Shown here: positions 1-55,764 of the stretch, piece by piece
Layout: each line of letters opens with the position of its first letter
How positions within the stretch are numbered: the stretch's first letter is position 1
Assembly (NCBI GenBank): GCA_050010535.1
Contig: JBEKKT010000001.1
Coordinates: forward strand, 1,372-65,371
Source of the DNA: Methanomassiliicoccales archaeon
Lineage (GTDB): Archaea; Thermoplasmatota; Thermoplasmata; Methanomassiliicoccales; JACIVX01
Length of the DNA: 64,000 nt
Reading direction: 5' to 3'
Program-made: the position numbers and the translations under genes
Notes under the pieces: generated by a model
What the model saw: the letters and a program-made list of their open reading frames with translations, nothing else
What the model was told of the DNA's origin: nothing
Database searches by the model: none

Positions 1-94
1 AATGCAGGTTGATAGATGAATACCAGGTACTTTCGTCCATCCCTCTGTGACAGATATATAAGCAATGTTGGGATTAGACATGACAGGTGCATCG

Positions 95-1558
95 ATGCCT
101 GAGAAGAACATAGAAGAGTTGCCTGGAGTCGGACCCGCAACTGCCGAGAAATTGCGCGATGCTGGATACACCGACTTGATGGCCATCGCGGTAGAGTCTC
201 CGAGAGTTCTCGCCGAGGTGTGCGAGATCGGAGAGAGCACCGCGGCGAAGATCATCTCATCTGCCAAGCAGGCCGCTGACGTCGGTGGCTTTGAAACCGG
301 TGACCTCGTTCTTGAACGAAGAAAGAACATTCACAAACTGACATCTTGTTCCAGAGCTTTTGACGAGCTGATGGGAGGCGGATTCGAGACTCAGGCAATA
401 GCCGAGTTTTTCGGAGAGTTCGGAAGCGGAAAATGTGTGTCCGCTGATACTCGTGTCCTTTTCGAATTCGATGGGTCCACCCACGTCAGGACCATAGAGG
501 ATGTGTACTCGGACTTTGAGCGGCGAAGCAGCACGATGGAATACGACAACGGAGAGATTCTGTCCGCTCCAAAGGTGAGGGTTCTAGGTCTTGTCGACGG
601 CAGAATCATCCCGGTCTCGCCATCGCACATGTATAGAGAGAAGGTCGAGGAGGTCGTGGAGCTGTCCACGGATGGGGGCAGATCCATCACTCTAAGCAGG
701 ATCCACAGGCTGCCCGTTATGAGGAACAGGAGAATCGAATGGGTGCATGCCGGAGGAATCGTAGCGGGTGAGAAAATCGCGACGATCAAAGAAGGCTACG
801 ATGACCTCGAAGGATCGTTCAAAGGGGAAGTTAACCTTGGGATCGATCGAGTGCGTTCAGTCAAATCGATCTCTTACGACGACTACATCTACGATTTTAT
901 CGTGCCTCGGGGACACACATTCGTGGGCGGGAACATTCCGACAGTGCTTCACAACACGCAGATATGCTTCCAACTGGCCGTAAATGCAACGATGCCGTTT
1001 GACAAGGGGGGACTCGAAGGAGAAGTGCTTATGATCGATACCGAGAACACTTTCCGTCCCGAGCGGATAGTTCAGATAGCCACCGCTCTTGATCTCGACC
1101 CGATCGAGACTCTCCAGAGAATCCATGTCGCCCGCGCTTTCAACTCGCATCACCAGATGCTGCTGGTCGAGAAGGCGATGGAGCTTGCGCACGACAAGCC
1201 TGTGCGCCTTTTGATCGTCGACTCCCTGACGGCACACTTCAGGGCGGAATATATCGGAAGAGGGGCTCTCGCGGAGAGACAACAGTCGCTCAACAAGCAC
1301 ATGCACGACCTCCTGAGGTTCTCCGATCTCAATAACGCTGTCATCGCCGTCACGAACCAAGTGACTGCCAAGCCGGATGCGTTCTTCGGGGACCCCACTC
1401 GTCCCATAGGAGGACACATAGTTGGGCACACTGCGACATTCAGAGTCTACCTAAGGAAGAGCAAGGGCGGGAAGCGCATAGCGAGGCTCATCGACTCTCC
1501 GAACCTGCCAGAGGCTGAGGCGGTCATCACTGTGTCTGAAGAAGGAATCAGGGATTGA
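95..1558 (+). CDS. radA: DNA repair/recombination protein RadA (intein-containing precursor)
   Basis: N-terminal HhH ([12 protein letters not shown]), Walker A GEFGSGK|T split by an intein, [22 protein letters not shown]. Start at ATG 95 preferred; the ORF track starts at 65. Confidence 0.97.
434..955 (+). mobile_element. Mini-intein (174 aa) in the RadA P-loop, no homing endonuclease
   Basis: Begins Cys (CVSADT) right after GSGK. Block B-like TLSRIHRL, block F YDFIV, ends VLHN followed by Thr+1 (TQICFQL). Confidence 0.95.
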
Positions 1559-6392: not shown

Positions 6393-7844
6393 TCAACCGT
6401 AGAGCCTTCTTCTGTCGACGATCGACTGCGTCTTTGGAACGAAATCGAGGCTACCAGGGTCGAGCATCTCCACGATTGGCCTTTCGAGCAGGTCGTTGTC
6501 AAGGCCGGACCTGATCTCCGACATCTGGACCAGCGCCTCTTCGATCCTCTGTCTTGCAACCTCCTTGTTCCCGAGAAACTCGACCTTGAAGCGAAGCCGG
6601 TCCTTGTACCCCTCCCTTTCGATAATCGTCTGATAGTTCACGACGCCAGAAACGCTGAGGACCGCCTCGTCGAACAGGAGCGGGTAGACCTTCTCTCCCA
6701 TTCCGACCTTCGTCATCATGTCCAACCGGCCTTTGATCTTCCCAACCTTGCCGATTGTCTCCAGGCCACACTCGCAGGGTGGATTGATGAAGCTCGATAG
6801 GTCATAGCTCCGATATCGAATCAGAGGAGTGCCCTGGTAGCTCAGCGAAGTGAACACGAGTTCGCCGGGCTCCCTCTCCGCGACATGCTCCCCAGTCTCT
6901 GGATCGATGACCTCGATCAGGAAGTCGGCATCGTTGACGTGAAGACCGTCCTGAACCTTGCACTCGATCGTCGTCGCGAGGCCCATTTCGGTCAGCCCGT
7001 ATTGGCTCAGTGCCTTGCACCCCCAAGCGTCCTCGATCTCTCTACGCATCGATTCAGGAAGGGGCTCTGCCGAGAGTATGATTGCCTTCATTCCGAAGGA
7101 TCTCAGGTCATAATCCTTTCTGGCAAGCATGGTGACCCTGTAGATGAAGGACGTCAGACCGATCATCATCGTGGTGTTCGACCCCTTCATAATACGCGTC
7201 TGTTCATCCACGTCCAGCATGTCCGCAATCACGGACCTCAGTCCCGCGATCTTGCACGCTCCGTCCAGCATGTAGCCCGGGTCCCAGGATGCGATCGTCG
7301 GAAACATGATCTGCAGTGTGTCATCCTTCGTCATCCCAACGGTCTTGAGCGCTGCCGATATCGAGTCGATGATGTGCAGAATGTCATCCCTTGTGAAGAA
7401 GATCCGCTTCCTCAGACCTGAGGTGCCAGATGTCGTATACGCTCTCATCACCTTTCCTTGAGAGACGCAAAGAAAGTGGAATGGTTCCTTGGCGACTTCT
7501 GCGGGCTCGGTCAGCGGAACCTTCCTCAAGTCGTCGAATGTCTTAATGTCCGCCGGACCAACGTCCGCCTCCTTCAGCGCCTTCTCGTAGTATATGCTGT
7601 TCTCCTGGACGTATCCGAGGAGTTTTCTGAACTTGAATAGCCTATACGCTTCGAGATCCTTCCTCTCGATCTCATCAAGCGTGGATTTTCCGATGGCCTT
7701 CCTTAACCCCTGATCGCTCTTAAATGCAGAGCGCACCTGGTCGTGTATCCAGACTTCGAGAGGATGCTCTGTCGTCTCGGAAATCTTACGCGAGGCGAGG
7801 CTCCTTCGGGCCAACGCGATCTTAAGCCTCTTGAGCGGGTCCAC
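6393..7844 (-). CDS. AMP-dependent CoA ligase, phenylacetate-CoA ligase-like (DVU_1553-like)
   Basis: TTSGTSG P-loop, YGLTE, PLIRYRSYD, GRLD. Confidence 0.85.
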   Translation of the reverse strand: MDPLKRLKIALARRSLASRKISETTEHPLEVWIHDQVRSAFKSDQGLRKAIGKSTLDEIERKDLEAYRLFKFRKLLGYVQENSIYYEKALKEADVGPADIKTFDDLRKVPLTEPAEVAKEPFHFLCVSQGKVMRAYTTSGTSGLRKRIFFTRDDILHIIDSISAALKTVGMTKDDTLQIMFPTIASWDPGYMLDGACKIAGLRSVIADMLDVDEQTRIMKGSNTTMMIGLTSFIYRVTMLARKDYDLRSFGMKAIILSAEPLPESMRREIEDAWGCKALSQYGLTEMGLATTIECKVQDGLHVNDADFLIEVIDPETGEHVAEREPGELVFTSLSYQGTPLIRYRSYDLSSFINPPCECGLETIGKVGKIKGRLDMMTKVGMGEKVYPLLFDEAVLSVSGVVNYQTIIEREGYKDRLRFKVEFLGNKEVARQRIEEALVQMSEIRSGLDNDLLERPIVEMLDPGSLDFVPKTQSIVDRRRLYG

Positions 7845-7959
7845 TTCTCACAATAATCGAGGGTATGGGCTTAATCCTTTCCAATCTCAAGAGTGGTCTC
7901 TTCTACACCCACAGCACTCTGACTGACAGTATTATACACTGGAACTACGTAATTTATCT

Positions 7960-8732
7960 GTGACTCGGAACGAGTGGCGTAGCGAATGTTCGATTCTCAG
8001 GAAGCATATCAATCTGGCCGCATCTCCGATCGGGATAACACTACTTGCCTCGGCAAGAGACCTCCTTGCTTTTCCGAGCGTGAAGCTCTTACGAAAACGG
8101 CACCGTGCCATATGGCGGCAATCGCGAGATACTATAGAGAGGATGGGATAGTCGGCGCTTCCGCTGAGAGCATAGATTGCCTTCTGAGCCTGAGCTGCAT
8201 CGGCCTGATCAAGACCCCCGCCCGCGTTGAAGAAGGAATCTTGAACCAACACTTCACCAGCGGGCCCGAGGCAGCCAGGAGACTCAACACTTCGATAGAG
8301 ATGGCCGGCAATAAGGGCAAGAGATACGACGGAGTCATCATAGGACCGCTGGACCTGATGCCGACCGACCCGCATGTCATCGCGATGTATGTCACACCGG
8401 CCCAAGCATTGAGACTGGTCATCGGGTTCGCCTACAGAGAAGGTGAAGCTATAACGGGCACGATCACGGGCCAGGGATCACTTTGCGCCTCGATAGCCAA
8501 GGTCATCGATAGAAATGAAGTTGTCGTTGACATACCTTGCGCCGGGGACCGCGCCTATGGTTTCGTCCAGGAGCATGAACTCGTCGTGACCTATCCGGCG
8601 GGGAAGACCCAAGAGCTCATTGCAGGCTTGGAGGCGACGGAATCCATTGCCAGGCATCCGTTCAAGCTCTTCTTGAACTGGCCCGTCGTCATCTGGCCCG
8701 AATTCGAGCCGAGGAAGGGCGACCTTGGCTGA
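7960..8732 (+). pseudogene. DUF169 family protein, frameshifted near 8070-8095
   Basis: DUF169-like N-terminus (LRKHINLAASPIGITLL) lies in the 7960 frame; the body (PCHMAAIAR, TPAQALRL, GQGSLC, PCAGDRAYG..EHEL) lies in the 7986 frame. Confidence 0.7.
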
Positions 8733-8810
8733 AAGAAGTCTGCCCTCGTCCAATCGCTCTGGAGAGAATTTATATAGACGCGCGCCGCTCAGTCCGCAAG
8801 AGGAAGAAGG

Positions 8811-9116
8811 ATGGTACTGACACCACACATGCGGCAAATGGGTGTGACACCGAACCTTTTGAAAACGACGAAACAGGTAGTGTGCCCGATGTGCGGGCAC
8901 GAGTTCAGCCTGTTCCAGTCAAGGGCCATTGCGTGCAGGGGGTGCAGGAGAGCCGCAACTAGCTGCGAGAATGCACGCTGCCCGAGATGCGACTTTGAGT
9001 TCCCGTTGACGCTGATGCATGTCAATAACGCGCAGCGGCAAAGGGAGATCTCGACCTACATGAATAGCATCCTTGCCAACTACAACAGAAGCGTCGGCAA
9101 GAAAGGGACGCGCTAA
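8811..9116 (+). CDS. Small Cys-rich zinc-ribbon-like protein
   Basis: CPMC, CRGC, C, CPRC; purine-rich RBS-like sequence upstream. Confidence 0.75.
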   Translation: MVLTPHMRQMGVTPNLLKTTKQVVCPMCGHEFSLFQSRAIACRGCRRAATSCENARCPRCDFEFPLTLMHVNNAQRQREISTYMNSILANYNRSVGKKGTR

Positions 9117-10483
9117 CCTTTCCGCCCGTATTTTGCAAGCACTTCGTGCCGGTACAGGGTCTTCCCGTTCACGTTGTTGATGTTGAACAGACAGAATGGG
9201 ATGAGCTTGCCGTCTGGCGTCACCGTGTGGATACAGCAGTTGCGAAGCCTTTCTGTTTCAACGTTCCACACGTCCTGGAACGGCATTGCTGAAACGGTCA
9301 AGTATTTGGTCTTCGCCCTCTCGATGAAGCCGAGCCATGTCCCGTCCAAATCGGCCTCACTGCTCGTTGAGATCGATTCCTCGATGTACCTCCAAAGATC
9401 GCAAATCTCCTTCCTGGTCTTCTTCGCGACCTCCTTGGTGTCCCTGGGAGGTCCCATCGCTCTTGCTGTCAGGGGCAGGAGAGTGCCGTCCTCCATGAGG
9501 ACCGACATCGACTTCGCGTCGCAATGGACATTCGCACAAGATGTGGGGATAAAGCTATCCACCCTGAGCTCGCCACCTGTTTGCTTCTCGATCTCCTTAA
9601 GAAGGTCCGGTAGAACGACTCGGTCTTCATCCCCAGGTACCTTGGGATACCTACCGAAATAGGCGAGGGGCTGGAAATGGATTCCCTTCACTGTCGGAAT
9701 CCATTTCTTGGCGAATTGGATAACGTCGCCGACCTGATGGAGATTAATGCCTGGCGCGACCACACATACGAGCGTCACACCCATCCCCACCTTCTTGCAG
9801 TTCTCGAGGGCTTTGACCTTCACGTCAAGGAGGTCCCTACCGCATGTCTTCTTGAAAACATCCCCTGTGACGCCGTCAAATGAGAAGTAAAGCGAGTCCA
9901 CACCTGCCTCCTTAATCTTCTTGAGATACTCAATGTCCTGACCGAGCCTTACGGCGTTCGTGTTCACCTCGATGTAATCGATGCCCATACTCTTGCCGAG
10001 CCTAACGATCTCTGGGAGATCGTCACGGATAGTCGGCTCGCCGCCGGAGATCTGTACGGCGATAGGATGTTGAACGTAATCGAGGATCGTCTGGTACATC
10101 TTCTTGATCTCCTCGATGGTTGGGTGGAAGTTGTAGTGCTCATTTGCACTCGCAAAACACACTGGACACTTCAAGTTGCACTTGTTCGTGACCTCAAGCA
10201 CAGCTAGGCAAGTATGCTGCTGGTGATCCGGACAAAGTCCGCAGATCTCCGGACAGGTGCCCTTGTTCTCGACAGCTATCTTCTGAGGCTTCGAAAACTC
10301 GCAGGCATATCGCTGCAGGTCCTTGTAATCCTCTACCCCTCTCCAGATCAGGACTTTGAAGGTGCCGTGCTCGGGACAGGTCTTCACAAGAAATATGTTA
10401 TCGTTCTCCGCGATCTTCTCAGCGGGTATCGTCTTCAAGCACTGAGGACAAAGGCTCTCGGTCTGCCCGATCTTCTCGCTCAT
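9113..10483 (-). CDS. Radical SAM protein, TrsS/Tes-like
   Basis: N-terminal CPQC..CPEHG, CPEICGLC, CNLKCPVC (CxxxCxxC), SGGEP, C-terminal FQD.WN..RLRNCCIH..IPFC. Confidence 0.88.
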   Translation of the reverse strand: MSEKIGQTESLCPQCLKTIPAEKIAENDNIFLVKTCPEHGTFKVLIWRGVEDYKDLQRYACEFSKPQKIAVENKGTCPEICGLCPDHQQHTCLAVLEVTNKCNLKCPVCFASANEHYNFHPTIEEIKKMYQTILDYVQHPIAVQISGGEPTIRDDLPEIVRLGKSMGIDYIEVNTNAVRLGQDIEYLKKIKEAGVDSLYFSFDGVTGDVFKKTCGRDLLDVKVKALENCKKVGMGVTLVCVVAPGINLHQVGDVIQFAKKWIPTVKGIHFQPLAYFGRYPKVPGDEDRVVLPDLLKEIEKQTGGELRVDSFIPTSCANVHCDAKSMSVLMEDGTLLPLTARAMGPPRDTKEVAKKTRKEICDLWRYIEESISTSSEADLDGTWLGFIERAKTKYLTVSAMPFQDVWNVETERLRNCCIHTVTPDGKLIPFCLFNINNVNGKTLYRHEVLAKYGRKG

Positions 10484-10596
10484 GTCTTCCACCAGGATTA
10501 TGCTGACGGAACGGAGTTATTGCTTTTCTACTTTTCTGAGAAGAGGTCGCCGGCGTTCAAAGTTGCCAGGAATAGCTGACGCTGTTGGATGAATAT

Positions 10597-10628
10597 GAAA
10601 AAGAGTTTAAGAGGCCGCAATCGCGGCC
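10597..10628 (-). terminator. Putative terminator (GGCCGC hairpin plus T-rich tract)
   Basis: GGCCGC-N4-GCGGCC at 10613-10628, followed on the minus strand by TCTTTTT, just downstream of the 10639 stop. Confidence 0.45.
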
Positions 10629-10638
10629 CAAAATGTGC

Positions 10639-11100
10639 TTAAGCGCGCTTCTTTTCGAACAACCCTTCCGCAGCTGCGAGCGTCAAAGTTGCTAGGTATT
10701 CTTCCACCCAAGAGTCCTTGCACGTCGTGCAGACGACAGCGGGCCCGTTCCTCTTGACGGTCAGGTACTCCATCTCGACATGTCCGTACATGGCGGGTTG
10801 ATTGCAGTGGACGCAGACGTAGTTGGTGGGGTCGGTTGCATTCATTATGCCACCGAGCTTCATCCTGTGGGAGTATGCAGTCACCAGCGTAGCGTGCTTG
10901 GTAACCATGCCGTTCGTCTCATAGACCGCATATATTGTGACTTCCCCGATGCGTTTCTTTGCAATGAATTTTGAAGTTCCCTTGACCATGAGCTTCTTCT
11001 TCGATGACTCGGCGGTCTTAATCACGTCATCGACGTCCGCTTCCTTGATACCTCTCTTGCCGAGCACTTCCTTCACATTGTCCGGGATCTTGATGTCCAT
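10639..11100 (-). CDS. DVU_1557-like redox/zinc protein fused to an N-terminal 'AYSHRM' domain
   Basis: C-terminal CVHC..CTTC..VEEYLA..AEGLFEKK; GAGGTGA RBS before ATG 11100. Confidence 0.65.
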   Translation of the reverse strand: MDIKIPDNVKEVLGKRGIKEADVDDVIKTAESSKKKLMVKGTSKFIAKKRIGEVTIYAVYETNGMVTKHATLVTAYSHRMKLGGIMNATDPTNYVCVHCNQPAMYGHVEMEYLTVKRNGPAVVCTTCKDSWVEEYLATLTLAAAEGLFEKKRA

Positions 11101-11110
11101 TTCGTTCACC

Positions 11111-12229
11111 TCACCATGTCCCATACGTTCCGACATCCCTTGCCGCTTTTACCATCGCTAGGAGGTTGCCTGGAATCGTATACGGCGGAGTCTCGCAAGC
11201 AGTACCAAGTATGTAGCCCTTCTGGGTGTCGCGTCCTGCGAGGATCTGTGCCTTCGACTGTTCGTATACCACCTTGGGATTGGGGTTGATCATAAGCTTC
11301 GTGTCCACGGAACCCATGATCGTCGCTCTGTTCCCGAACTCCTGCTTCAGGAGCGATGACGGGAACACGTTTCTCCCCGAGTATCCAATGTGGATAACGG
11401 TAAACGGCGACCAGAACAGCGTGTCCTTGAACACCTTGTAGTCGGTCTGGTGGTTACCGCATAGGTGATAGAATAGCTGAGGTCCTGCCCCCCTTCTGAA
11501 GGACTGGTCGACATAGTACTTCATGTAGTCGGCCCCGAATGCCTTCACATCCTCATCGGAGAAGATGTCGTTGTTCGCAAGAACGGAACCGATGATCATC
11601 ATCGCCATTCCGAACTTGTTCGCCGTCCCAACCGCACCGTTTATGGCCGTATCGGTGAACTTCTTGACCAACTTGTGTGCCGCTTCTCGTTCTGTGAAGG
11701 TCCACATTATGAAGTTCTCGGCGCCGCACAGCTCGGCTGCTCCACCAACCAAGTCAAATCCGTATGCAATCGGAACCAACGTCATGGGGAGATTCTTCTG
11801 GACATACTCATACATCCTGATGAACTCGGGAAGAGTATGTCCCTTCATCAGCTCGTCCACATCGGGCACGTGGATGTTGTCCACTTGCCCGGGTTCCGTA
11901 ATGATCGGACCTGTCGAGATCGGGGGCAGCGTGTCTTTGTACTGCAGTGTGAGTCCGAGCTCCCTTACCCACGGCAACGAGTAGAACCAGTGCGTCACTG
12001 GCAACAGGTCGTACAGGTGGGAAATATACCCGACGCAGTGGATACCGAGCTCAGGCTTCTCGTAGAAGTCTCGAATCGTGAATCCGCATGCTACCGCAGC
12101 ATGCGACAAAATTATTGGATCCACGTCGATCCTGTCATGCGGTACATCGACAAACGGGGAGGCGAAGCGCTTCGTGGCATTTGCGTGCCACTTCGCATCC
12201 ATTGCTGGAAATAGCTCTTCATAGCCCAT
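11111..12229 (-). CDS. UroD/MtaA-CmuA family methyltransferase
   Basis: HLCG (HxC Zn ligands), MGSVDT, GYILGTACETP, PGNLLAMVKAAR. Confidence 0.8.
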   Translation of the reverse strand: MGYEELFPAMDAKWHANATKRFASPFVDVPHDRIDVDPIILSHAAVACGFTIRDFYEKPELGIHCVGYISHLYDLLPVTHWFYSLPWVRELGLTLQYKDTLPPISTGPIITEPGQVDNIHVPDVDELMKGHTLPEFIRMYEYVQKNLPMTLVPIAYGFDLVGGAAELCGAENFIMWTFTEREAAHKLVKKFTDTAINGAVGTANKFGMAMMIIGSVLANNDIFSDEDVKAFGADYMKYYVDQSFRRGAGPQLFYHLCGNHQTDYKVFKDTLFWSPFTVIHIGYSGRNVFPSSLLKQEFGNRATIMGSVDTKLMINPNPKVVYEQSKAQILAGRDTQKGYILGTACETPPYTIPGNLLAMVKAARDVGTYGTW

Positions 12230-12445
12230 TGTTTATCCCCCGTTCCTAACTGTCGTTCGAAATATTTAAGTGTTGTCTTCCATTCTTTGCAACATTGTTT
12301 CAACCCCGATTGTTAAGATGTGTTAATAGGAAACATTGTCTCTAAATTACTGCACATGACGGTACTAATGTTCAATAATCGACGTGAGACAGGGAAGAGG
12401 CGATTCGGAAAGCCGACTGTGGGAGATTTCCCAGTTGTCGCTGAG

Positions 12446-12561
12446 TGCGGGGGGAGGGATTTGAACCCTCGGACCCCTTCGGGACAGAATGTCTTCCGAA
12501 AGCCTATCCAAACGCATCCGTCTTAAGTCCTGCGCTTTTGGCCAAGCTTAGCTACCCCCGC
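12446..12561 (-). tRNA. tRNA-Leu(TAA) with 31-nt intron (12491-12521)
   Basis: GCGGGGG/CCCCCGC acceptor, anticodon TAA at 12525-12523, long variable arm, GTTCAAATC T-loop; removing the intron gives 85 nt. Confidence 0.9.
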
Positions 12562-12649: not shown

Positions 12650-13984
12650 TCAGGTCGTCTTGAGTTTGCCGCCCAGTCCGTCCACGATCAGCTCTTCAAG
12701 GGTCGGATGACCTATCTCGCATAACTCGTATCTGACCCTGACGATAGGCTTGTTGACCTTTATGACCCGGTGCAGATCCACAGGCGTCCCGGAAACCACC
12801 ACGTCGCAATCCGACCTATTTATTGTGTCCTCCAACTCCTTCACCTGGTCATCCCCATAGCCCATTGCAGGAAGAAGCTTGCCTATGTGCCCGTATTTCC
12901 TGAGGGTCTCCGCGATCGAACCGACGGCAAAAGGACGGGGATCGATGATCTCGGCTGCGCCGAAGTCTTCTGCAGCTATCGTGCCAGCGCCGTATGCCAT
13001 GCCACCGTGCGTCACGGTCGGACCGTCCTCCACGACAAGCACCCTCTTTCCCTTTATGTCATCCGGATTGTCGACGATTATCGGTGAAGCCGCTTCGATG
13101 ACCGTCGCTCCAGGATTGATCCTCTTGATGTTGTCCCTTACAGTGAGAATGTCTTGCCTGTCAGCAGTCTGAATCTTATTTATGATAATGACGTCTGCCA
13201 TCCTGACGTTCGTCTCACCAGGGTGATAGGCCACCTCATGGCCGGGCCGATGGGGGTCAGCGATGACGATGTGGAGATCAGAGCGATAGAACGGAACGTC
13301 GTTGTTTCCTCCATCCCACACAATGACGTCCGCCTCCTTTTCCGCCTCCCTCAGTATGCTTTCGTAGTCCACGCCAGCATAGACGACTATACCCATATCG
13401 ATCAACGGCTCGTACTCCTCCCGCTCCTCGATCGTGCATTCATTCCTGACTAGATCGTCATAGGTGGCGAAGCGCTGGACAGCTTGCTTCTTTAGATCAC
13501 CGTAGGGCATGGGATGGCGAACGGCCACGACGTCAAGACCCTTATTCCTCAGAATCGCGCAGATTTTCCTGGTTGTCTGGCTCTTCCCTGAACCCGTCCT
13601 GACAGCCCCGACGCTTATCACTGGAACGCTCGACCGCAGAACGATCTTCGAGTTGCCCATCAGTCTGAAGTCGGCGCCTAAGGCAAGTACCGCCGAGGCC
13701 TTATGCATAACATCAACGTGAGAGATGTCGCTGTACGCGAAGACGACTTGCTCGACATCGTTCTCCCTGATAAGACCAGCAAGTTCCGCTTCGGGGTATA
13801 TCGGGATCCCATCGGGATAGAGCCTCCCGGCGAGTTCAGTGGGATATCTCCTGCCCTCAATGTTGGGAATCTGCGTTGCGGTGAAAGCGACAACCTCGTA
13901 GATTGGATTGTCCCTGAAATACGTGTTGAAGTTGTGGAAATCACGTCCTGCGGCCCCCATTATGATGACTCGCATCTTGTCCAC
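12650..13984 (-). CDS. COG2403 (cyclic-2,3-DPG synthetase-like) protein, probable arginine synthetase ArcE
   Basis: GAAGRDFHNFN, RTGSGKSQ, RHPMPYG, EEREEYEP, WDGGNND, EDGPT.THG. Confidence 0.8.
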   Translation of the reverse strand: MDKMRVIIMGAAGRDFHNFNTYFRDNPIYEVVAFTATQIPNIEGRRYPTELAGRLYPDGIPIYPEAELAGLIRENDVEQVVFAYSDISHVDVMHKASAVLALGADFRLMGNSKIVLRSSVPVISVGAVRTGSGKSQTTRKICAILRNKGLDVVAVRHPMPYGDLKKQAVQRFATYDDLVRNECTIEEREEYEPLIDMGIVVYAGVDYESILREAEKEADVIVWDGGNNDVPFYRSDLHIVIADPHRPGHEVAYHPGETNVRMADVIIINKIQTADRQDILTVRDNIKRINPGATVIEAASPIIVDNPDDIKGKRVLVVEDGPTVTHGGMAYGAGTIAAEDFGAAEIIDPRPFAVGSIAETLRKYGHIGKLLPAMGYGDDQVKELEDTINRSDCDVVVSGTPVDLHRVIKVNKPIVRVRYELCEIGHPTLEELIVDGLGGKLKTT

Positions 13985-17446: not shown

Positions 17447-18412
17447 GTGATCGGAGTGGGAGAAGTACCAATCCCCAGAGAAAAGTGGACAGGGAAGATT
17501 GGAATCACAACACTTGGAGCGACATCTCAGGAGGGGGGAACTAGAGGGAGGAGGATCCTGATTGGTGGTCAGACAGGAATGCCTTTCTTGTCCTACGAGG
17601 GGGGGACCCCGAACAGACCCGCAATCGCAGGAGAAGTCATTGACACGATCAGGGACTACCCTGAGCTTGCGAAGAAACCCTTCGGCCATGCGATTAACGA
17701 CCCGGCGAAGTGGGCGAAAGTGTGGGTTGAACAGTTCGGAGCGGATATTATCTGCCTAAGGCTCCTCTCCACAAACCCTGAGGAAGAAGATAGATCCGCG
17801 GAGGAAGCCGCTGAGATTGTCAGACAAGTACTTGAAGCTGTCAGCGTGCCCTTAATCGTCTACGGCTGTGGAAACGAGGAGAAAGATGCAAAGACAATGG
17901 AAGAAGTCAGCAGAGTCGGTGCGATGGAAAGACTGTTGCTGGCTCAAGCAGAAGAAACCGCTTACAAATCAATCTCTAAGGCAGCGATGGCCGGCAATCA
18001 CGCTATTGTTGCGTTCTCGAATCTTGACATTAATCTAGCCAAGCAGTTAAACATCCTTCTCACGGACCTTGGAGTGAAGAGAGAGGACATCGTGATGGAC
18101 CCTCTGCAAGCCAGCCTGGGAACCGGTCTGGAGTACTCTTATTCGGTCAACGAGCGGATCAACCTGGCTGCCCTTACGGGGGACTCTATGCTGCAGATCC
18201 CGATGGTCTGTGATATTACTGCGGCCTGGAAAACGAGGGAAGCCACGGATGAGAACGAATTGTTGGGGGACCCGGGTGAGAGGGCGGTGTGGTGGGAGGC
18301 AGCCACCGGACTTGCTGCCCTAATCTCCGGCGCATCTATGCTCGTCGTCAGGAGCCCACTGGCCGCGAGAATTCTTAACGACGCACTTGACGATTTGACA
18401 GAGGGGGGATGA
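17447..18412 (+). CDS. acsD: Corrinoid Fe-S protein small subunit (AcsD/CdhD)
   Basis: IGGQTGMPF, DPAKWAK, DINLAKQLN, MDP..LG.GLEYSYS..ERI.LAAL.GD. Confidence 0.92.
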   Translation: MIGVGEVPIPREKWTGKIGITTLGATSQEGGTRGRRILIGGQTGMPFLSYEGGTPNRPAIAGEVIDTIRDYPELAKKPFGHAINDPAKWAKVWVEQFGADIICLRLLSTNPEEEDRSAEEAAEIVRQVLEAVSVPLIVYGCGNEEKDAKTMEEVSRVGAMERLLLAQAEETAYKSISKAAMAGNHAIVAFSNLDINLAKQLNILLTDLGVKREDIVMDPLQASLGTGLEYSYSVNERINLAALTGDSMLQIPMVCDITAAWKTREATDENELLGDPGERAVWWEAATGLAALISGASMLVVRSPLAARILNDALDDLTEGG

Positions 18413-18413
18413 A

Positions 18414-19739
18414 ATGCCGACCGCAATCGAGATATTCAAGCTGCTGCCGAAGAAGAACTGCGGGGAGTGCAAATTCCCGACCTGTCTCGCGTTCGCGATG
18501 CAACTGGCGAATCAGAAGGCAAAGTTGGATGATTGTCCGCACGTCTCCGAAGAGTCAAAGGGACTCCTCGCCGCTTCCGCCGCACCCCCGATAAGGTCGG
18601 TCAGGATCGGCACTGGGGAAAACAGGTTGGAAATCGGAGACGAAACGGAACTGTACAGACACGAAAAGAAGTTCTTCCACCCAACCTGCTACGCCATCGC
18701 AGTCTCCGACAAGTCTTCCATACAAGAACGCGAGAAGAGGGTGGAAAAGGTGAACCGACTCAAGTTCGAGCGGGTCGGCCAAATCTTGAAGATAGATATG
18801 ATAGGGGTGAGGAATGATTCCGGAGATGCGAACACGTTCGCTGATGCGGTCGAGGAGGTTTCGAACCACACCGATCTGCCCCTGATACTGTTCACTAGTG
18901 ATCCAAATTCCATGAGAGCAGCTGCAGCGAAAATCGCTGTCAAGATTCCGCTCTTGCATGCTGCCACGTCATTGAATGTCGATGCGATGGCTGCCATTGC
19001 GAAGGAAATGAAGTGCCCCCTGGTCGTACGCGAGGATGGGGATCTAGACAAGCTTGTGGATCTCGCACGGAAGGTGAAGGCAATCGGTGTCGAGGACATG
19101 GTCGTCGACTTTGGACCGAAATCCCTCAAGGACCTCCTCGAGAAAAGCACCATAATCAGGAAGGTCTCTGTGAAGAAAACGTTCAGAGGACTAGGCTACC
19201 CTATAATGGTTGATGCAGGTAGCGGAGAGAAAGCTGTCCTCATGGCTATGATTTCGACAATGAAATACGGAAGCATCATTGCGTTCGACGACATCAGTCC
19301 CGCTGAGATATTACCGCTCTTTGTCCTGAGGCAGAATATCTTCACCGATCCACAGGTACCAATACTGGTGAAGCCGGATCTTTACCCCATCAACAATCCG
19401 GACGAGAATTCACCTTTGTTGTTCACTACTAACTTCTCCCTTACATACTTCACGGTCGTTGGCGACCTAGAGAAGAGCAAGATGCCCGCATGGCTGCAGG
19501 TCATCGATACGGAGGGATTGTCCGTGATGACGGCTTTTGCCGCAGGGAAGCTCACACCCGAGACCGTGGCCAAGGCGCTGGAGGCATCAGCAGCAGTCGA
19601 GAAGTCGAAACGAGGGGATATCATCGTCCCTGGGCTGCTTTCCAGGATGAGTTGGAGACTTCAAGAAATCACAGGTCTTAATACGATCATCGGACCGAAG
19701 GAGTCAAGCGCACTGCCGAAGTTCATGAAGAGCCTATAG
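18414..19739 (+). CDS. acsC: Corrinoid Fe-S protein large subunit (AcsC/CdhE)
   Basis: LPKKNCGEC..PTCLAFAM..CP Fe-S motif, LYRHEK, RQNIFTDPQ, TTNFSLTYF. Confidence 0.95.
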   Translation: MPTAIEIFKLLPKKNCGECKFPTCLAFAMQLANQKAKLDDCPHVSEESKGLLAASAAPPIRSVRIGTGENRLEIGDETELYRHEKKFFHPTCYAIAVSDKSSIQEREKRVEKVNRLKFERVGQILKIDMIGVRNDSGDANTFADAVEEVSNHTDLPLILFTSDPNSMRAAAAKIAVKIPLLHAATSLNVDAMAAIAKEMKCPLVVREDGDLDKLVDLARKVKAIGVEDMVVDFGPKSLKDLLEKSTIIRKVSVKKTFRGLGYPIMVDAGSGEKAVLMAMISTMKYGSIIAFDDISPAEILPLFVLRQNIFTDPQVPILVKPDLYPINNPDENSPLLFTTNFSLTYFTVVGDLEKSKMPAWLQVIDTEGLSVMTAFAAGKLTPETVAKALEASAAVEKSKRGDIIVPGLLSRMSWRLQEITGLNTIIGPKESSALPKFMKSL

Positions 19740-21468: not shown

Positions 21469-23364
21469 TCAGCCACGAAGCAGTTTCTGAACGGTTGGGA
21501 ACTGTTCGACGTCTGTATGCGGCAGGAAAAGGGATGATGAGAATTCGTCGAAGAAAGCCTGTGTCGTGCTCAACTCGAAATACGTCATCGAGTCGTAGAC
21601 CGCCCTGGCCTCGACCCGTTTTTTCGCTGAAAGCAGAGTGAGACGGGCCCCCGCGAGTGCTCCGTTTCCGAGGAAGAAGAAGCGTTCGAAGGGCAAATCG
21701 GGAAGCAAACCGATGGTGATTGCTCTCTCCGTATCAATGTAGTTTCCGAATCCCCCCGCGATGTGTATTTTCTGGACATCCGAGAAGCTGAATTTCAGAC
21801 TCCTTAACAAGACATTGCAGGCGGAGTAAACCGCCCCCTTCGTCCTAATGATGTTGGCAATTTCGTCATCAGTGACAACGATGTCCTTCGCCTCCCCAGC
21901 ACCCAGAGTTGTCTCCCTGGCCCAGGCGACGACGAACTCTAGACCCTGCTTTCCCCTTCTAACTCTTGGGGTCGAGAGTTCCTGTATGCGCCCTTTTCTA
22001 TCAACAATCCCTCGCAGAAACATCTCTGCCAGGAGATCGATTAGGCCGGACCCGCAGATCCCCCTAGGCTTCACGCCACCGATCGTCGAGTACTTGACAT
22101 CGCAGCGGTCGAGTATCCTGACGCGCTCGATCGCCCCGGTCATCGCCCTCATCCCAGCCGCCACTTCGCCGCCTTCGAACGCAGGACCAGCCGAGCACGA
22201 ACAGGAGACCATCCAGTCCGAATTCCCCAGCACGATCTCCCCGTTCGTCCCAACATCGATGAGAAGCGATAGCTCCGACCGCTTGTTCATCCCCGAGGCG
22301 ATGACGCCAGCGGTTATGTCCCCTCCGACATAGCTCGACCTGCCTGGAACGCAGTAGACTGGTGCATCTGGATGAATGTCAATTCCGATGTCCTTCGCCC
22401 TGAATATCGGAGGCACATTCACCGCCGATATGTATGGCTCGTACCTGATGTATCGAGGGTCAAGTCTCAGGAACAAGTGTATCATCGTTGTGTTGCCAGA
22501 AACGGACATGCTTGTTATTTCATAACTTAATACCTTGTTCCCGGGTCCCAGGCTCTTTTCTGACTCGTCGCATGCCTGTGCAATTAGATTGTTGACAGTG
22601 TCGAGGATCATATTGTTCAGCCTCCCGAGGCCCCCCTCCTCTGCATACGTGATCCTGGAAAGGACGTCCTCGCCGTATCCAATCTGCTTGTTATAGTCGG
22701 AGGTCTGAGCTATATCTCGTCCATCTGCCAAATCTATTATGGAAAGGACGACCGTCGTGGTCCCGATGTCAAGCGCTATCCCGTAATTGCGAGACGAAGC
22801 ATCTCCTGGCCTCACGTCAATGAGCACTCTTGGCCTAGAGACCTCGTCCAGGACCGCAGTAATTTTCCAATCACTATCCCTGAGGATGCTCGGTAACGTC
22901 TTCAGTGATCTAAGAGTGCTCTTGAGTTCGCGGGCACCGAACCCCATTCCGCGGACGATTCTCTCCATGTCCCCGATGTTGTCCACCAGCGTTGGCGCAG
23001 ATAGCTCTAAGTAACGCGCGGCAGAAAGGGGTGTAAGATCATCGATATCGCCCGCGAGGTATGATGTGAGTATTTGATGGGAGGCGATCTCGGCTTCCTC
23101 CGGGATGATGACCTCCCCATCACCAGTTATCCTGGTCTTGCACGCGAGGCGATAGCCGCTCTCCCAGTCTTTCTCGCCTATGAGATGACAACGGGGCGAG
23201 TCGAACGAACCTCTGGTCAAGACACGGCACTTGCCACACGTCCCCTTCCCCCCGCAAACGCTGCTCATAAGAACGCCTGCGCTGAACGCAGCATCAAGGA
23301 TCGTCGTGCCTTCTTCGACCGTAACGGTCAGCGATTTCGGGCGAAAGGCGACGGAATACCTCAT
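21469..23364 (-). CDS. Reductive activator of corrinoid proteins (RACo/AcsV; 2Fe-2S plus ASKHA ATPase)
   Basis: CGGKGTCGKC..RLAC, DIGTTT, DVGTNGE, AGPAFEG, GICGSG. Confidence 0.92.
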   Translation of the reverse strand: MRYSVAFRPKSLTVTVEEGTTILDAAFSAGVLMSSVCGGKGTCGKCRVLTRGSFDSPRCHLIGEKDWESGYRLACKTRITGDGEVIIPEEAEIASHQILTSYLAGDIDDLTPLSAARYLELSAPTLVDNIGDMERIVRGMGFGARELKSTLRSLKTLPSILRDSDWKITAVLDEVSRPRVLIDVRPGDASSRNYGIALDIGTTTVVLSIIDLADGRDIAQTSDYNKQIGYGEDVLSRITYAEEGGLGRLNNMILDTVNNLIAQACDESEKSLGPGNKVLSYEITSMSVSGNTTMIHLFLRLDPRYIRYEPYISAVNVPPIFRAKDIGIDIHPDAPVYCVPGRSSYVGGDITAGVIASGMNKRSELSLLIDVGTNGEIVLGNSDWMVSCSCSAGPAFEGGEVAAGMRAMTGAIERVRILDRCDVKYSTIGGVKPRGICGSGLIDLLAEMFLRGIVDRKGRIQELSTPRVRRGKQGLEFVVAWARETTLGAGEAKDIVVTDDEIANIIRTKGAVYSACNVLLRSLKFSFSDVQKIHIAGGFGNYIDTERAITIGLLPDLPFERFFFLGNGALAGARLTLLSAKKRVEARAVYDSMTYFELSTTQAFFDEFSSSLFLPHTDVEQFPTVQKLLRG

Positions 23365-44620: not shown

Positions 44621-45802
44621 TCACTGTGTGCCAGGATTCCCGGCATTGACCGAATCCTCTCCGGTCGTCTTCGGATTCCGAATACCGCTCGAAGCGAGAA
44701 CATGAATGTCGGATATCGGGTAGCTGCTTCTCGGGCTCGGGGACGAATGCTCATGCAACGCGCAGCTGAAATGAATCAGACACTTGGGGCATGCGGTGAC
44801 AAGTTCGTCCGCGCCAGTCGTCTGCGCCTCTTTCAGTCTATCGAGCTGCCACTCCTTTGTGGAGGCATCACAGTTTACCCAGCACGAAATCCCGCAACAC
44901 GCGCTCATCGAGCCTGACCTTGGCATCTCGATCAATCTGCCCATGTCCTTGAGGATGTCCCTGGGCTCCTGGATCATACCAGAGTGCCTGGACAATCTGC
45001 AAGGATCGTGGTACGTGAAGGTCTTGCCCGAATCGCAAAGGGATATCTCACAGTCCTTGACGGCTTTTCCGACAATCGCCGTGAGGGTTTTGACCTCAAA
45101 ACTCAGGGGACCGAGAAAGCGCGGGTACAGATCCTTCAGTGCAGTGTAGCACTCCGGACAGAATGTCACGACCTCATTCGCTCCGGTCGCTTCGATCGCC
45201 CTCACGTTCGCCTCGGCCAGCCTCCCGAAGGTGTCCTGATCTCCAAGCCAGTATGCATCGTGCCCGCAACACCTCTCGTGCTCGAGCAAACGGGGCCTTA
45301 TCCCGATGGAATTCAGCAGACGGACGGAGGATCTCGGGATCTCAAGAAGATCACTCCTTATGTGTTTGAAGACCACGTCGAAGTACGGCGTGCATCCGAC
45401 GAACAAGAGCGTCGAAGAATCCGGATCGATCCTCAGGTCCGGGGTTATCCAGTTGTTCATGCGGGGCTTGATGCGGCTGAACGATGACATATTCTGAATC
45501 ACCCGGAAGATGTCGCTATGGGTTGTCTCGGGAGGAATTGAGCGACTCAGGGAGGGGCGCACCTCTCTGACGAACTCGTGGAACTTCACGCCTGAGGTGC
45601 AGAGCTCCGTGCACATGCCACAGGTCATGCATTCCCACAGTCCCTTGTCACTCGCAAGATTCCCCGAACCAACGTACTCCTCGACAACCTTCCTCGGGGA
45701 AAACTCGCCAGCCTTGTGGGACACCGGACACCCCCAAGTGCACTTTCCGCAATTGATGCAGCTCGACACTCTGTACCTTGCCGCGCTCTCTTCAACCGTC
45801 AC
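44621..45802 (-). CDS. HdrD-like Fe-S oxidoreductase (HdrC plus HdrB domains)
   Basis: Two CxxCxxCxxxC clusters; CCG domains (CCG..CPEC; YHDPC..CCG..CPKC). Confidence 0.88.
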   Translation of the reverse strand: MTVEESAARYRVSSCINCGKCTWGCPVSHKAGEFSPRKVVEEYVGSGNLASDKGLWECMTCGMCTELCTSGVKFHEFVREVRPSLSRSIPPETTHSDIFRVIQNMSSFSRIKPRMNNWITPDLRIDPDSSTLLFVGCTPYFDVVFKHIRSDLLEIPRSSVRLLNSIGIRPRLLEHERCCGHDAYWLGDQDTFGRLAEANVRAIEATGANEVVTFCPECYTALKDLYPRFLGPLSFEVKTLTAIVGKAVKDCEISLCDSGKTFTYHDPCRLSRHSGMIQEPRDILKDMGRLIEMPRSGSMSACCGISCWVNCDASTKEWQLDRLKEAQTTGADELVTACPKCLIHFSCALHEHSSPSPRSSYPISDIHVLASSGIRNPKTTGEDSVNAGNPGTQ

Positions 45803-52542: not shown

Positions 52543-53271
52543 TTGGAGGAGGTCCGATTGACATCAAATGAGAGACTTAAGACGTATGTTGAGGGTTTCG
52601 ACAAGATACTGGAAGGCGGTGTTCCAGCCGGACAAGTTGTTCTCGTATCCGGGACACCTGGAACGATGAAGTCGTCCCTGACATACTACATGCTCTACCA
52701 CCACGCAAAAGAGAACGGTAGGACCGGCGTCTACGTTACGTTGGAACAGTCGAGAGAGAGCCTCGTCCGCCAGATGGAGAAGATGGGGATGAAGGCGAAG
52801 GACGTCGGAGAAAAGCTGAACGTCCTGGACCTGGGCCTCATACGGAAGAAGCTTAAGCAGATCTCTGGCGGCGGCTCATGGATGCAGGTCTTCAAGTCGT
52901 ACCTCGAGAACCTGAAAGAGAACCTGAAGTACGATCTCCTTGCAATCGATTCCCTGGACGTGCTCGAGACCATGGCCGACATAGAGAACCGCAGGACCGA
53001 ACTCTTCTACCTCTTCGATTGGTTGAGAGGGCTCGATGCAACTGTACTCCTCATCTCGGAGGCGTCTCCTGAGAAGATACTAGAAGGCTCTTTCGCTGAA
53101 GGCTATCTTTCGGATGGCATCATATCGCTCAAGATGCAGGTTGTTAGGGAAGTGGAGACCCAGAGGCGTATCAGATGCGTCAAGATGAGGGAGACGAATC
53201 ACGATCCTTCGTACTTTTCTCTTCTCTTCACTGGAGGCAAGTTCCAGGTTACTAAAGTGATAAGCGAATGA
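52543..53271 (+). CDS. KaiC/RAD55-like ATPase
   Basis: GTPGTMKS, TLEQ, IDSL, KMRET. Confidence 0.88.
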   Translation: MEEVRLTSNERLKTYVEGFDKILEGGVPAGQVVLVSGTPGTMKSSLTYYMLYHHAKENGRTGVYVTLEQSRESLVRQMEKMGMKAKDVGEKLNVLDLGLIRKKLKQISGGGSWMQVFKSYLENLKENLKYDLLAIDSLDVLETMADIENRRTELFYLFDWLRGLDATVLLISEASPEKILEGSFAEGYLSDGIISLKMQVVREVETQRRIRCVKMRETNHDPSYFSLLFTGGKFQVTKVISE

Positions 53272-53285
53272 CGCCTGGTGTCTGA

Positions 53286-54803: not shown

Positions 54804-54883
54804 AGCGTGTGGAAATCAGATTTGCGAGACAGCGACGAAAAATTAAATAGCCTCAGACCACTTAACCGCTATCCGGGAGGATA

Positions 54884-55603
54884 ATGACAGCGCAGATCGA
54901 GCGGGTGCGGACGTTCATTCACAATTTTGACGAAAACCTGCAAGGGGGAATACCGAAAGGCCAGGTGGTTTTGATTACCGGCACCCCGGGCACGATGAAA
55001 TCCTCCCTCGCGTATAGCATTCTCTACAGGAACGCGCTCGAGAACAAGATCAAGAGCGTGTACATGACCCTCGAGCAATCGAGAGAGAACCTCATACAAC
55101 AGATGGCGACGATGGGAATGGACGATGAGGCTGTGAAGGAGTATGTCCACGTTCTGGACCTGGGCCTTATAAGGAAAAGCCTGACGCAGATCAGTGCGAA
55201 GGGGACTTGGCTTCAGGTCTTCAAAATGTATGCGGACAGCCTGAAGCACAGCATTGGATACGAGATCCTAATCCTGGACTCGCTGGATGTCCTTGAGATG
55301 GCCGCGCAGATGGGCGAGAGTCGACGCACGGAGCTGTTCTACCTGTTCGAATGGCTCAGGAATCTGGGTATCACATCCTTCCTGATCTCCGAGACTTCGC
55401 CGGAAGCGATGCTCGAGAACAAGTATGACGAAGGATACCTGGCGGACGGTGTGATAAGCCTCAAACTTCAGGAGATTGGCGAGACGGACATTCAGAGACG
55501 CATAAGGGCGGTCAAACTGAGAAGCACGAACCACAAGACCGGATACTTCTCTCTCCTGTTCAGTGACGGAGTGTTCCGCGCGACCCAGGTAATAACGGAA
55601 TAG
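54884..55603 (+). CDS. KaiC/RAD55-like ATPase (paralog of 52543..53271)
   Basis: GTPGTMKS, TLEQ, LDSLDVLE, RRTELFYLF, KLRST. Confidence 0.88.
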   Translation: MTAQIERVRTFIHNFDENLQGGIPKGQVVLITGTPGTMKSSLAYSILYRNALENKIKSVYMTLEQSRENLIQQMATMGMDDEAVKEYVHVLDLGLIRKSLTQISAKGTWLQVFKMYADSLKHSIGYEILILDSLDVLEMAAQMGESRRTELFYLFEWLRNLGITSFLISETSPEAMLENKYDEGYLADGVISLKLQEIGETDIQRRIRAVKLRSTNHKTGYFSLLFSDGVFRATQVITE

Positions 55604-55691: not shown

Positions 55692-55764
55692 GGGCTCATG
55701 GTCTAGCGGTTATGACGTTTGCCTCACACGCAGAAGGTCGCCGGTTCGAATCCGGCTGAGCCCA
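55692..55764 (+). tRNA. tRNA-Val(CAC)
   Basis: GGGCTCA/TGAGCCC acceptor, TTTGC-CT-CAC-AC-GCAGA anticodon arm, GCCGG-TTCGAAT-CCGGC T arm. Confidence 0.95.

Follow-up and report, generated by a model that had tools for sequence, protein, structure and literature searches.

A TrsS-type radical SAM enzyme and its partner genes in Methanomassiliicoccales: a probable archaeal form of a system of strict anaerobes

Do the genes that surround a TrsS-type radical S-adenosylmethionine (SAM) enzyme in a Methanomassiliicoccales archaeon, a member of an order that includes human-gut methanogens, form a functional system, and what could such a system do? The question is raised by a 64,000-nucleotide stretch of contig JBEKKT010000001.1 (assembly GCA_050010535.1; hereafter the window), in which a first-pass annotation had described a six-gene block beside a tRNA-Leu and suggested an undescribed archaeal pathway for making or using a methyl/thiol carrier or cofactor. 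The six open reading frames (ORFs) and the tRNA are found where it had placed them, and its interpretation was in part borne out: the co-occurrence of the genes and the link to an MtaA/UroD-type protein held, and a single six-gene unit and the lack of a molybdoenzyme as an archaeal peculiarity did not. We found a conserved core of five genes, coding for TrsS, an adenylate-forming ligase, a small fusion protein, an MtaA-like protein and a cysteine-rich protein (working name CysR), which is very probably the archaeal form of the TrsS/DVU_1553-type ligase/DVU_1557 system of strict anaerobes. That system is widespread, including in gut and sediment bacteria, and is still without known chemistry.

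Gene order and conservation of the archaeal core

The minus-strand unit of the window begins with the gene of a UroD-superfamily, MtaA-like protein (positions 11111-12229, 372 residues, Pfam URO-D), which overlaps that of the fusion protein (10639-11136, 165 residues, DUF7479; likely start 11124), composed of the tail of a bacterial reductase and DVU_1557; TrsS (9113-10492, 459 residues, NF045646; likely start 10483) lies on the same strand. A hairpin with a T-run at about 10595-10628, after the fusion-protein stop codon, was spotted by eye, and a terminator scan made no call. Two plus-strand genes are convergent with TrsS, namely CysR (8811-9116, 101 residues with seven cysteines, no family above cut-off), which overlaps the TrsS stop by 4 nucleotides, and a frame-shifted DUF169 gene (7960-8732, with an ORF of 248 residues at 7986-8732; PF02596). 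The PaaK-like adenylate-forming ligase of the DVU_1553 type (6393-7844, 483 residues, best match NF045666) is encoded on the minus strand, divergent from DUF169 and 1.3 kb from TrsS, and is followed by pdxT. With two strands and three transcription directions, the six genes are not one operon. An ORF cluster ("31") and a 395-residue ORF of locus L005 were discarded as antisense artefacts over CysR and the UroD-like gene.

Conservation was assessed on a sample of TrsS loci collected by comparing a 30-sequence TrsS alignment with genome contigs, which gave 577 relatives, of which 76 loci were kept. Sixty-nine of them are bacterial (Chloroflexota, Desulfobacterota, Bacillota, Acidobacteriota, Spirochaetota and other phyla) and seven archaeal: L001-L005 from Methanomassiliicoccales/Thermoplasmata, L006 from Candidatus Hadarchaeum and L073 from Bathyarchaeota; no Methanosarcinales locus is among the 76. 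Window proteins were compared with these loci by tblastn (E<=1e-4), and bacterial families were counted by tblastn with up to eight members per family (coverage of at least 0.5, E<=1e-5) within 10 kb of TrsS. For the naming of neighbours, ORFs were called and clustered, and one median-length member per cluster was compared with NCBIfam and Pfam.

A relative of the window ligase was found within the flanks of TrsS in 64 of the 76 loci, an association far beyond chance. Among the seven archaeal loci, CysR and the ligase are each present in six and the UroD-like and fusion proteins each in five, L073 having none of the partners. The UroD-like gene stands beside TrsS in all five archaeal module loci (the module loci being L001-L006) in which the upstream side is present; L001 breaks off at the N-terminus of TrsS and so gives no information on this side. 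In L006, from Hadarchaeum, the UroD-like, fusion and CysR genes form a tight co-directional run converging on TrsS, with the ligase on the other side; since the five genes are adjacent there despite their changed order and strands, function is a better reason for their proximity than inherited synteny. The same locus carries between ligase and TrsS a second, shorter radical SAM gene (L006:1252-2235, plus strand, 327 residues) that matches TrsS residues 85-350. The genes upstream of the UroD-like gene vary among archaeal loci. Contigs of equal length recur in the lists of matches to TrsS, the UroD-like protein and CysR (144994, 5548, 1788703, 9578, 25980, 13463 and 17397), which suggests that the genes lie together in further cases. 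GGGP synthase is encoded in L001-L005 besides the window, PdxT in L001, L003 and L004 only, and a UbiA-type prenyltransferase lies by the module in the window, L003 and L004. DUF169 homologues are likewise confined to L001, L003 and L004, that is three of the seven archaeal loci. The archaeal core thus comprises five genes and is conserved from Methanomassiliicoccales to one Hadarchaeum. Within Methanomassiliicoccales the module appears highly conserved, which suggests that the cells may need what it makes, and the five genes are a compact set, small enough for joint expression. DUF169 is an optional neighbour and not a core member; its patchy occurrence and its broken frame dispose of the six-gene unit, and the "Cys-rich protein" that had been listed in the block proves to be a conserved core member, a status overlooked at first.

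The bacterial TrsS neighbourhood is already curated in NCBIfam. In our sample of 69 bacterial loci it includes DVU_1557 (NF045645) in 58, the ligase (NF045666) in 56, the DVU_1556 methyltransferase (NF045667) in 53, a 760-residue NAD(P)H/FeS/CCG reductase (NF045663) in 52, the C-GCAxxG-C-C protein (NF045669) in 48, a molybdenum (Mo) aldehyde oxidoreductase (NF045668) in 40, an XdhC-like factor (NF045664) in 29, a CobC-like phosphatase in 20 and a cysteine desulfurase (TIGR01977) adjoining TrsS in seven. As a rule, the genes follow one another as oxidoreductase, reductase, DVU_1557, methyltransferase, C-GCAxxG-C-C protein, TrsS, ligase, XdhC, nucleoside triphosphate (NTP) transferase (NF045665) and phosphatase. 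The claim that TrsS, the DVU_1553 ligase and DVU_1557 co-occur in anaerobic bacteria therefore stands. A molybdoenzyme is, as had also been said, a usual neighbour in bacteria and is absent here; this does not set the archaea apart, because 29 of the 69 bacterial loci have none within 10 kb either.

Searches by tblastn for the DVU_1556 methyltransferase, the C-GCAxxG-C-C protein, the oxidoreductase and XdhC gave nothing in L001-L006 or the window. The full-length NF045663 reductase is absent from the same sequences, the sole window match to this reductase being an HdrB/C-like gene at 44621-45802 (also given as 44891-45769). The archaeal comparison thereby separates constant parts (TrsS, the ligase and the small reductase-tail/DVU_1557 pair) from exchangeable ones (which kind of methyltransferase is present, the partner rich in cysteine, the body of the reductase and the Mo enzyme). 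Seen in this way, the Mo enzyme has the look of an accessory and not of the system's purpose, and a methyl transfer seems to be one of its fixed steps. Our literature searches brought up no account of the archaeal gene set: the one for TrsS gave a table entry only, in PMC13188914, where the name is credited to Haft and Tolstoy 2025, the naming paper itself lying outside the search, and those by locus tag (DVU_1551-1553 and DVU_1555-1559) gave nothing relevant beyond a listing of DVU_1559 as Aor in PMC10920352. We provisionally regard the set as an undescribed variant.

The core proteins and their surroundings

The window TrsS passes its family model along nearly its whole length (542.5 bits for a cut-off of 490, model positions 2-441 of 441) and contains the Radical_SAM (PF04055) and Zn_ribbon_HMPTM (PF23545) domains. 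Residues C15, C18, C39, H42, C105, C109, C112, C324, C419 and C434 are invariant in 30 TrsS sequences, C105/C109/C112 being the CxxxCxxC radical SAM motif and C15/C18/C39/H42 the N-terminal Cys ribbon. A scan of 1.84 billion representative proteins gave 627 representative clusters of relatives at E<=1e-30, and TrsS is the best NCBIfam family for all 60 of those scanned among the top 150 representatives. The closest homologue is 96% identical; the names among the 120 listed matches are all Methanomassiliicoccales or Thermoplasmata save one "Nitrososphaerales", and the archaeal homologues P0015, P0025, P0029 and P0051 bear the name TrsS in public annotation. In a FastTree phylogeny of 68 sequences rooted on L073 (eight loci, in which no called ORF spanned the match, were omitted), the archaeal sequences form one clade with Shimodaira-Hasegawa-like support of 0.92, and the bacterial ones include separate clades that are oxidoreductase-less (11 sequences, 0.967) or of the oxidoreductase type (0.895). 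The loci of the 11-sequence clade carry an MFS transporter in some cases and HGD-D/BcrAD-type reductase genes in others.

Long TrsS proteins further indicate which functions are joined to this enzyme. Thirteen long representatives among the top 150 were compared with Pfam. Two are fused to the ligase (P0265 and P0283, which, with 457.5 and 390.8 bits, pass the DVU_1553 model), three to a MobA-like NTP transferase (P0247, P0251 and P0284, of which P0251 passes the DVU_1551 NTP transferase model with 429.5 bits for a cut-off of 315), four to a class I methyltransferase and two to DUF5714 (P0245 and P0300); the remaining two have the radical SAM domain alone. DUF5714 was tried as a relative of the C-GCAxxG-C-C protein and rejected, BLASTP giving nothing better than E 1.4. 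The family name also allows for a selenocysteine form ("(seleno)protein"); the window ORF is uninterrupted, and no TrsS gene split by an in-frame TGA was seen in the 76 loci, adjacent double matches being tandem paralogues. Two full-length tandem paralogues occur in the oxidoreductase-less bacterial loci L007, L008, L017, L019, L063 and L076. Two other identities were dropped: Gms (GMGT synthase) is described in PMC11186832 as a SPASM enzyme with a helical N-domain, and the window protein has a Tes-type ribbon; the pterin methylase activity hinted at by the Pfam name Zn_ribbon_HMPTM was abandoned on account of the assignment of MJ0619 to tetraether synthesis in PMC9433317.

The UroD-like protein matches Pfam URO-D (PF01208) with 90.8 bits for a cut-off of 23.9. 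NCBIfam MtaA models respond weakly, with 59.6, 50.3 and 39.4 bits for cut-offs of 244, 235 and 400, the MtaA/CmuA models among them being TIGR01463 (50.3 against 235.4) and NF040654 (39.4 against 400). A profile of 22 family sequences nevertheless finds PDB 4AY7, the MtaA of M. mazei, at E 4.4e-6, and the AlphaFold2 (AF2) model (predicted local distance difference test, pLDDT, 89) has 4AY8 and 4AY7 as its best Foldseek matches (template modelling, TM, scores 0.75 and 0.81), its fold being nearest to MtaA, then UroD, then MetE. Residues H255, C257 and C345 align to the HiCGn and pgCg motifs of MtaA and do not vary in any of the 22 sequences. L006 has the triad as well; the corresponding residues of MtaA we take to be the zinc ligands of that enzyme. 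We therefore describe the protein, from its sequence and predicted fold, as a putative Zn-dependent methyl-corrinoid:thiol methyltransferase, in keeping with the MtaA/UroD link proposed at the outset. The family is narrow: 195 matches were obtained at E<=1e-10, the named ones among those listed are all Methanomassiliicoccales, identity ranges from 56 to 88% across the 120 listed matches (one fragment excepted), and only L002-L006 among the 76 TrsS loci encode a homologue.

The fusion protein had been called DVU_1557-like, which is right for its C-terminal domain and overlooks the remainder. Alignment divides it into about 85 N-terminal residues, equivalent to the C-terminal domain of the bacterial NF045663 reductase, and about 60 C-terminal residues that form the DUF7479/DVU_1557 zinc-ribbon domain; residues 8-94 match the last 85 positions of the reductase model. 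It thus joins the reductase tail to the product of what in bacteria is the next gene, DVU_1557, and the reductase domain also exists free-standing (about 87 residues) in L007, L008, L010, L011, L013, L017 and L063. DUF7479 (PF24292) is matched with 47.7 bits for a cut-off of 27, and full-length homologues are found in L002-L006 and one bacterial locus, L017. On Atlas structures (the Atlas copy starts at residue 5), residues 13-98 match bacterial CCG/Fer4 proteins with TM scores of 0.78-0.83. Foldseek with the AF2 model (pLDDT 85.8) returned no match at E<=0.001, the weak best ones being RelE/BrnT-like folds for the N-domain; a sub-threshold Atlas match of this domain to DUF4258 is in line with these folds and serves as a lead. 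Profile comparison with PDB sequences gave nothing better than E 0.52. The two CxxC pairs, to which the DVU_1557 family owes the name "redox protein", are present in the window and L006 and not in every orthologue (see below), and to judge from these substitutions a redox role is doubtful and an adaptor role more likely.

CysR reaches the cut-off of no Pfam or NCBIfam family. Its 49 homologue clusters, where named, are all from Methanomassiliicoccales, and tblastn found it in L001-L006 and in none of the bacterial loci. Across 29 sequences, five cysteines (C42, C45, C52, C57 and C60) never vary, and C25 and C28 are conserved in at least 90%, giving the seven-cysteine pattern CxxC…CxxCx6Cx4CxxC. 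Its profile retrieved only generic zinc-finger/RpoP-like matches from the PDB, the best being a designed zinc finger at E 1.8e-5. The window ligase has the AMP-binding and AMP-binding_C_2 domains and is of the DVU_1553 type by context and best match, not a formal member of that family. As for the optional DUF169 gene, residues 5-49 of the L001 homologue correspond by tblastn to 7960-8094 and residues 48-260 to 8088-8726 in a different frame: the N-terminal 45 residues or so lie in the frame of an ORF at 7960-8151, and the junction falls near 8088-8095, by a short A-run. The break is due either to a pseudogene or to an assembly error. A search of PDB sequences with DUF169 found nothing.

Several features around the core were recorded for themselves. 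The tRNA-Leu(TAA), that is with a UAA anticodon, lies at 12445-12561 on the minus strand and contains a 20-nucleotide intron according to ARAGORN with introns allowed; it was overlooked by ARAGORN with default settings and matched by the Rfam tRNA model at 12446-12561 (minus strand, 44.6 bits). Only in the window genome does this intron-bearing tRNA mark where the module ends upstream. Beyond it, a 444-residue protein (12650-13984, minus strand) has a marginal cobW/P-loop match only and no homologue in the 76 loci. Two CdhD-type genes for the subunits of a corrinoid Fe-S protein, of another type than the corrinoid proteins discussed below, lie 5 kb off (17447-19739, plus strand), with a RACo-type reductive activator nearby (21469-23364, minus strand); the window showed no CdhC/ACS gene, and in the related locus L005 an ACS beta subunit is encoded close by. 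Besides GGGP synthase, the window codes for Hdr/Mvh-type proteins: the segment 42829-49210 (minus strand) encodes a 1001-residue HdrA-like protein, which has two flavin and several ferredoxin domains, then MvhD and three HdrB/C-like CCG/Fer4 proteins. Finally, a RadA/Rad51 recombinase gene (65-1558, plus strand) has an intein splicing domain at residues 143-297, and three KaiC-family ATPase genes stand in a row (52543-55603, plus strand) just before a tRNA-Val (55692-55765).

A possible chemistry and its rivals

Given that the block is very probably the archaeal form of the bacterial TrsS set, we suggest that its MtaA-like enzyme stands in for the SAM-dependent methyltransferase, a swap that we consider evenly balanced between right and wrong; CysR would in the same manner take the place of the C-GCAxxG-C-C protein. 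The whole, comprising kinship, swap and an outline of function, has in our judgement about an even chance of being the best explanation of the locus. The chemical scheme that goes with it, in which an acid is activated, undergoes a radical step and is subject to methyl transfer at sulfur, is tentative and on present evidence rather unlikely to be right in full. In this scheme, the ligase would adenylate a carboxylic acid and probably thioesterify it. TrsS would then abstract hydrogen from an unactivated carbon of the resulting acyl compound and use a Tes-like carbon-sulfur(cluster) route that leaves a sulfur function on that carbon. The Zn enzyme would shift a methyl group between a methyl-corrinoid and the new thiol, the fusion protein and CysR would act as docking or carrier subunits, and reducing power would come from the cell's own Hdr-type enzymes. 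Sulfur chemistry is preferred on three grounds: the bacterial reductase carries CCG domains of the HdrB type, a cysteine desulfurase is present now and then, and Tes sets a precedent, PMC9433317 reporting three [4Fe-4S] clusters together with a rubredoxin-like iron in MJ0619, which joins inert sp3 carbons by way of a bond from the substrate carbon to a cluster sulfur; even so, the sulfur reading is weakly founded.

The boldest form of this proposal is a long shot. The five genes would constitute a self-contained apparatus for placing a thiol on an unactivated carbon of a ligase-activated acid, the sulfur being released with the product, the MtaA-like enzyme coupling the thiol to the methyl-corrinoid pool and CysR serving as a sulfur or methyl relay. 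If this were true, it would be a new route to or from a mercapto- or methylthio-acid, and the product could be a thiol coenzyme of a new kind or else a coenzyme-B-like omega-mercapto acid made in another way.

A series of observations weighs against our preferred explanation. None of the member proteins has a known substrate, product or activity, which makes each chemical step conjectural, and the archaeal sample is small, with six module loci. The equation of the UroD-like protein with DVU_1556 rests on their mutual exclusion alone, in 6 versus 69 loci. Of the families named by the first-pass annotation, model searches confirmed TrsS and also DUF169 (PF02596, 119.3 bits, profile positions 35-208 of 209, positions 1-34 lying in the other frame). 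The ligase fell short of the DVU_1553 model NF045666 (264 bits for a cut-off of 300, positions 9-330 of 331), which is the best of 22 families, and the fusion protein, which passes Pfam DUF7479, fell short of the NCBIfam DVU_1557 model NF045645 (30.7 for 60); two of the three "DVU" assignments are thus below cut-off and rest on best-match rank, Pfam and context. All four DUF7479 cysteines are replaced in the L002, L003 and L005 orthologues, in which the rest is conserved, so the fusion protein is no dependable electron carrier. No corrinoid (B12-binding) protein is encoded in or flanking the module in the window and L002-L005, and the MtaA-like enzyme would need to use one from elsewhere. Among 46 sequences of the bacterial DVU_1556 methyltransferase, cysteines are conserved nowhere outside the SAM motif; nothing in bacteria therefore speaks for sulfur as methyl acceptor, and for the same reason we ruled out an ArsM-like metalloid methylation by this enzyme. 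A cysteine desulfurase is present in just seven of the 69 bacterial loci, and the MobA-like fusions together with the frequent XdhC and Mo enzyme fit cofactor maturation at least as well.

Maturation of a cofactor is accordingly one of the two strongest rivals, though an improbable one. The TrsS set would tailor or insert the pterin cofactor of the Mo aldehyde oxidoreductase, or another metallocofactor, and the archaeal version would mature an unlinked enzyme. The 40 bacterial loci with the oxidoreductase, the 29 with an XdhC-type factor, the MoCF_biosynth proteins of 13 loci and the three MobA-like fusions speak for it. They are offset by the 29 bacterial loci that lack the oxidoreductase, by the coherent TrsS clade of 11 sequences without it, and by the archaeal loci and window, which have no Mo/W enzyme, XdhC or MobA-like gene; moreover, XdhC and the NTP transferase alone suffice to explain oxidoreductase maturation. 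We know of no place for a CoA-ligase-type enzyme or a methyltransferase in the maturation of the molybdenum cofactor. Just as improbable is a role in substrate use, by which a methyl-reducing methanogen would take methyl groups from a methylthio-acid, the MtaA-like protein acting as demethylase in the manner of MtsA/MtpA while the ligase and TrsS process the skeleton. The intact triad of this protein, its methanogenic host and UroD-superfamily S-demethylases mentioned in a part of PMC10418091 agree with such a role, as do bacterial loci of catabolic appearance (sigma-54 activators at nine loci, Fe-alcohol dehydrogenase at five, MFS transporter at three and chemoreceptors at three). The archaeal module, however, has no corrinoid protein, RamA-type activase or transporter and is also kept in a Hadarchaeum, the bacterial counterpart is SAM-dependent and cannot demethylate, and the tight conservation of the UroD-like protein suggests housekeeping over a niche substrate.

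Still less credit can be given to lipid tailoring, in which TrsS would modify membrane lipids such as the butanetriol and pentanetriol tetraethers of Methanomassiliicoccus luminyensis, with the methyltransferase giving the methyl. It would account for the strong match of TrsS to Tes/GDGT-MAS (E 1e-93), for the GGGP synthase and UbiA-type neighbours described above, and for the backbone-methylated tetraethers of M. luminyensis, to which no enzyme is assigned in the portions available of PMC10673518 and of the preprint 10.1101/2025.10.20.683597. Yet the 69 bacterial loci, whose phyla have no isoprenoid ether lipids, contain the same TrsS/ligase/DVU_1557 core, TrsS lacks the C-terminal half of Tes, and a carboxylate ligase has no role in ether lipids; the vicinity of GGGP synthase, which also holds RadA, an M50 protease and an RNA methyltransferase, looks like plain synteny. 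That there is no unit at all, the genes being neighbours by descent with unrelated jobs, we consider highly improbable: three transcription directions within 5.8 kb and the lineage-bound synteny of DUF169, PdxT and GGGP synthase would suit it, but the five genes stay together in Hadarchaeum with altered order and strands, bacteria have TrsS-ligase fusions, the fusion protein joins the products of adjacent bacterial genes, and the ligase accompanies TrsS at 64 of the 76 loci.

Relation to known systems

The UroD-like protein resembles MtaA, MtbA and MtsA (MT2 enzymes, PDB 4AY7) in its fold and in the invariant, aligned His-x-Cys…Cys positions. It differs from them in a structural-alignment identity of about 16%, in scores far below the cut-off of every MtaA model, in having no accompanying corrinoid protein and in a family confined, among named matches, to Methanomassiliicoccales. 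MtaA-like proteins beyond classical methanogenesis, in anaerobes, are also found in mlp gene clusters of Type 1, for which Kountz and Balskus, in a part of PMC10418091, propose a role in methyl-sulfur or methyl-selenide metabolism; a search of that article for radical SAM, CoA ligase and Methanomassiliicoccales found none of these terms. The ligase shares its domain pair with the PaaK/coenzyme F390 synthetase branch, whose models come second (202 and 183 bits). It lies far below their cut-offs of 700 and 646, in contrast to its closer match to the DVU_1553 family, and ligases of this kind are fused to TrsS in some bacteria.

Tes/GDGT-MAS is the sole characterised relative of TrsS. The window protein matches PDB 7TOL at E 1e-93, and the N-terminal Cys-rich ribbon, the CxxxCxxC core, additional Cys clusters and, at the C-terminus, the CCIH…PFC motif all align. 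On the other hand, it reaches 396.8 bits for a cut-off of 450 with NF045702, the main match covering positions 1-314 of 486; the C-terminal half of Tes is missing, residues of about 320-395 in the window protein find no match in Tes, and TrsS has other partner genes and occurs in bacteria without ether lipids. The nearest known system therefore remains the bacterial TrsS set. Compared with it, the archaeal loci lack the reductase body, DVU_1556, the C-GCAxxG-C-C protein and the Mo enzyme with its maturation genes, and they have instead the MtaA-like protein and CysR, found in 0 of the 69 bacterial loci. What the window shares with the bacterial set, with all four adjacent to one another, is TrsS, the type of ligase, the DUF7479/DVU_1557 domain and the reductase's C-terminal domain.

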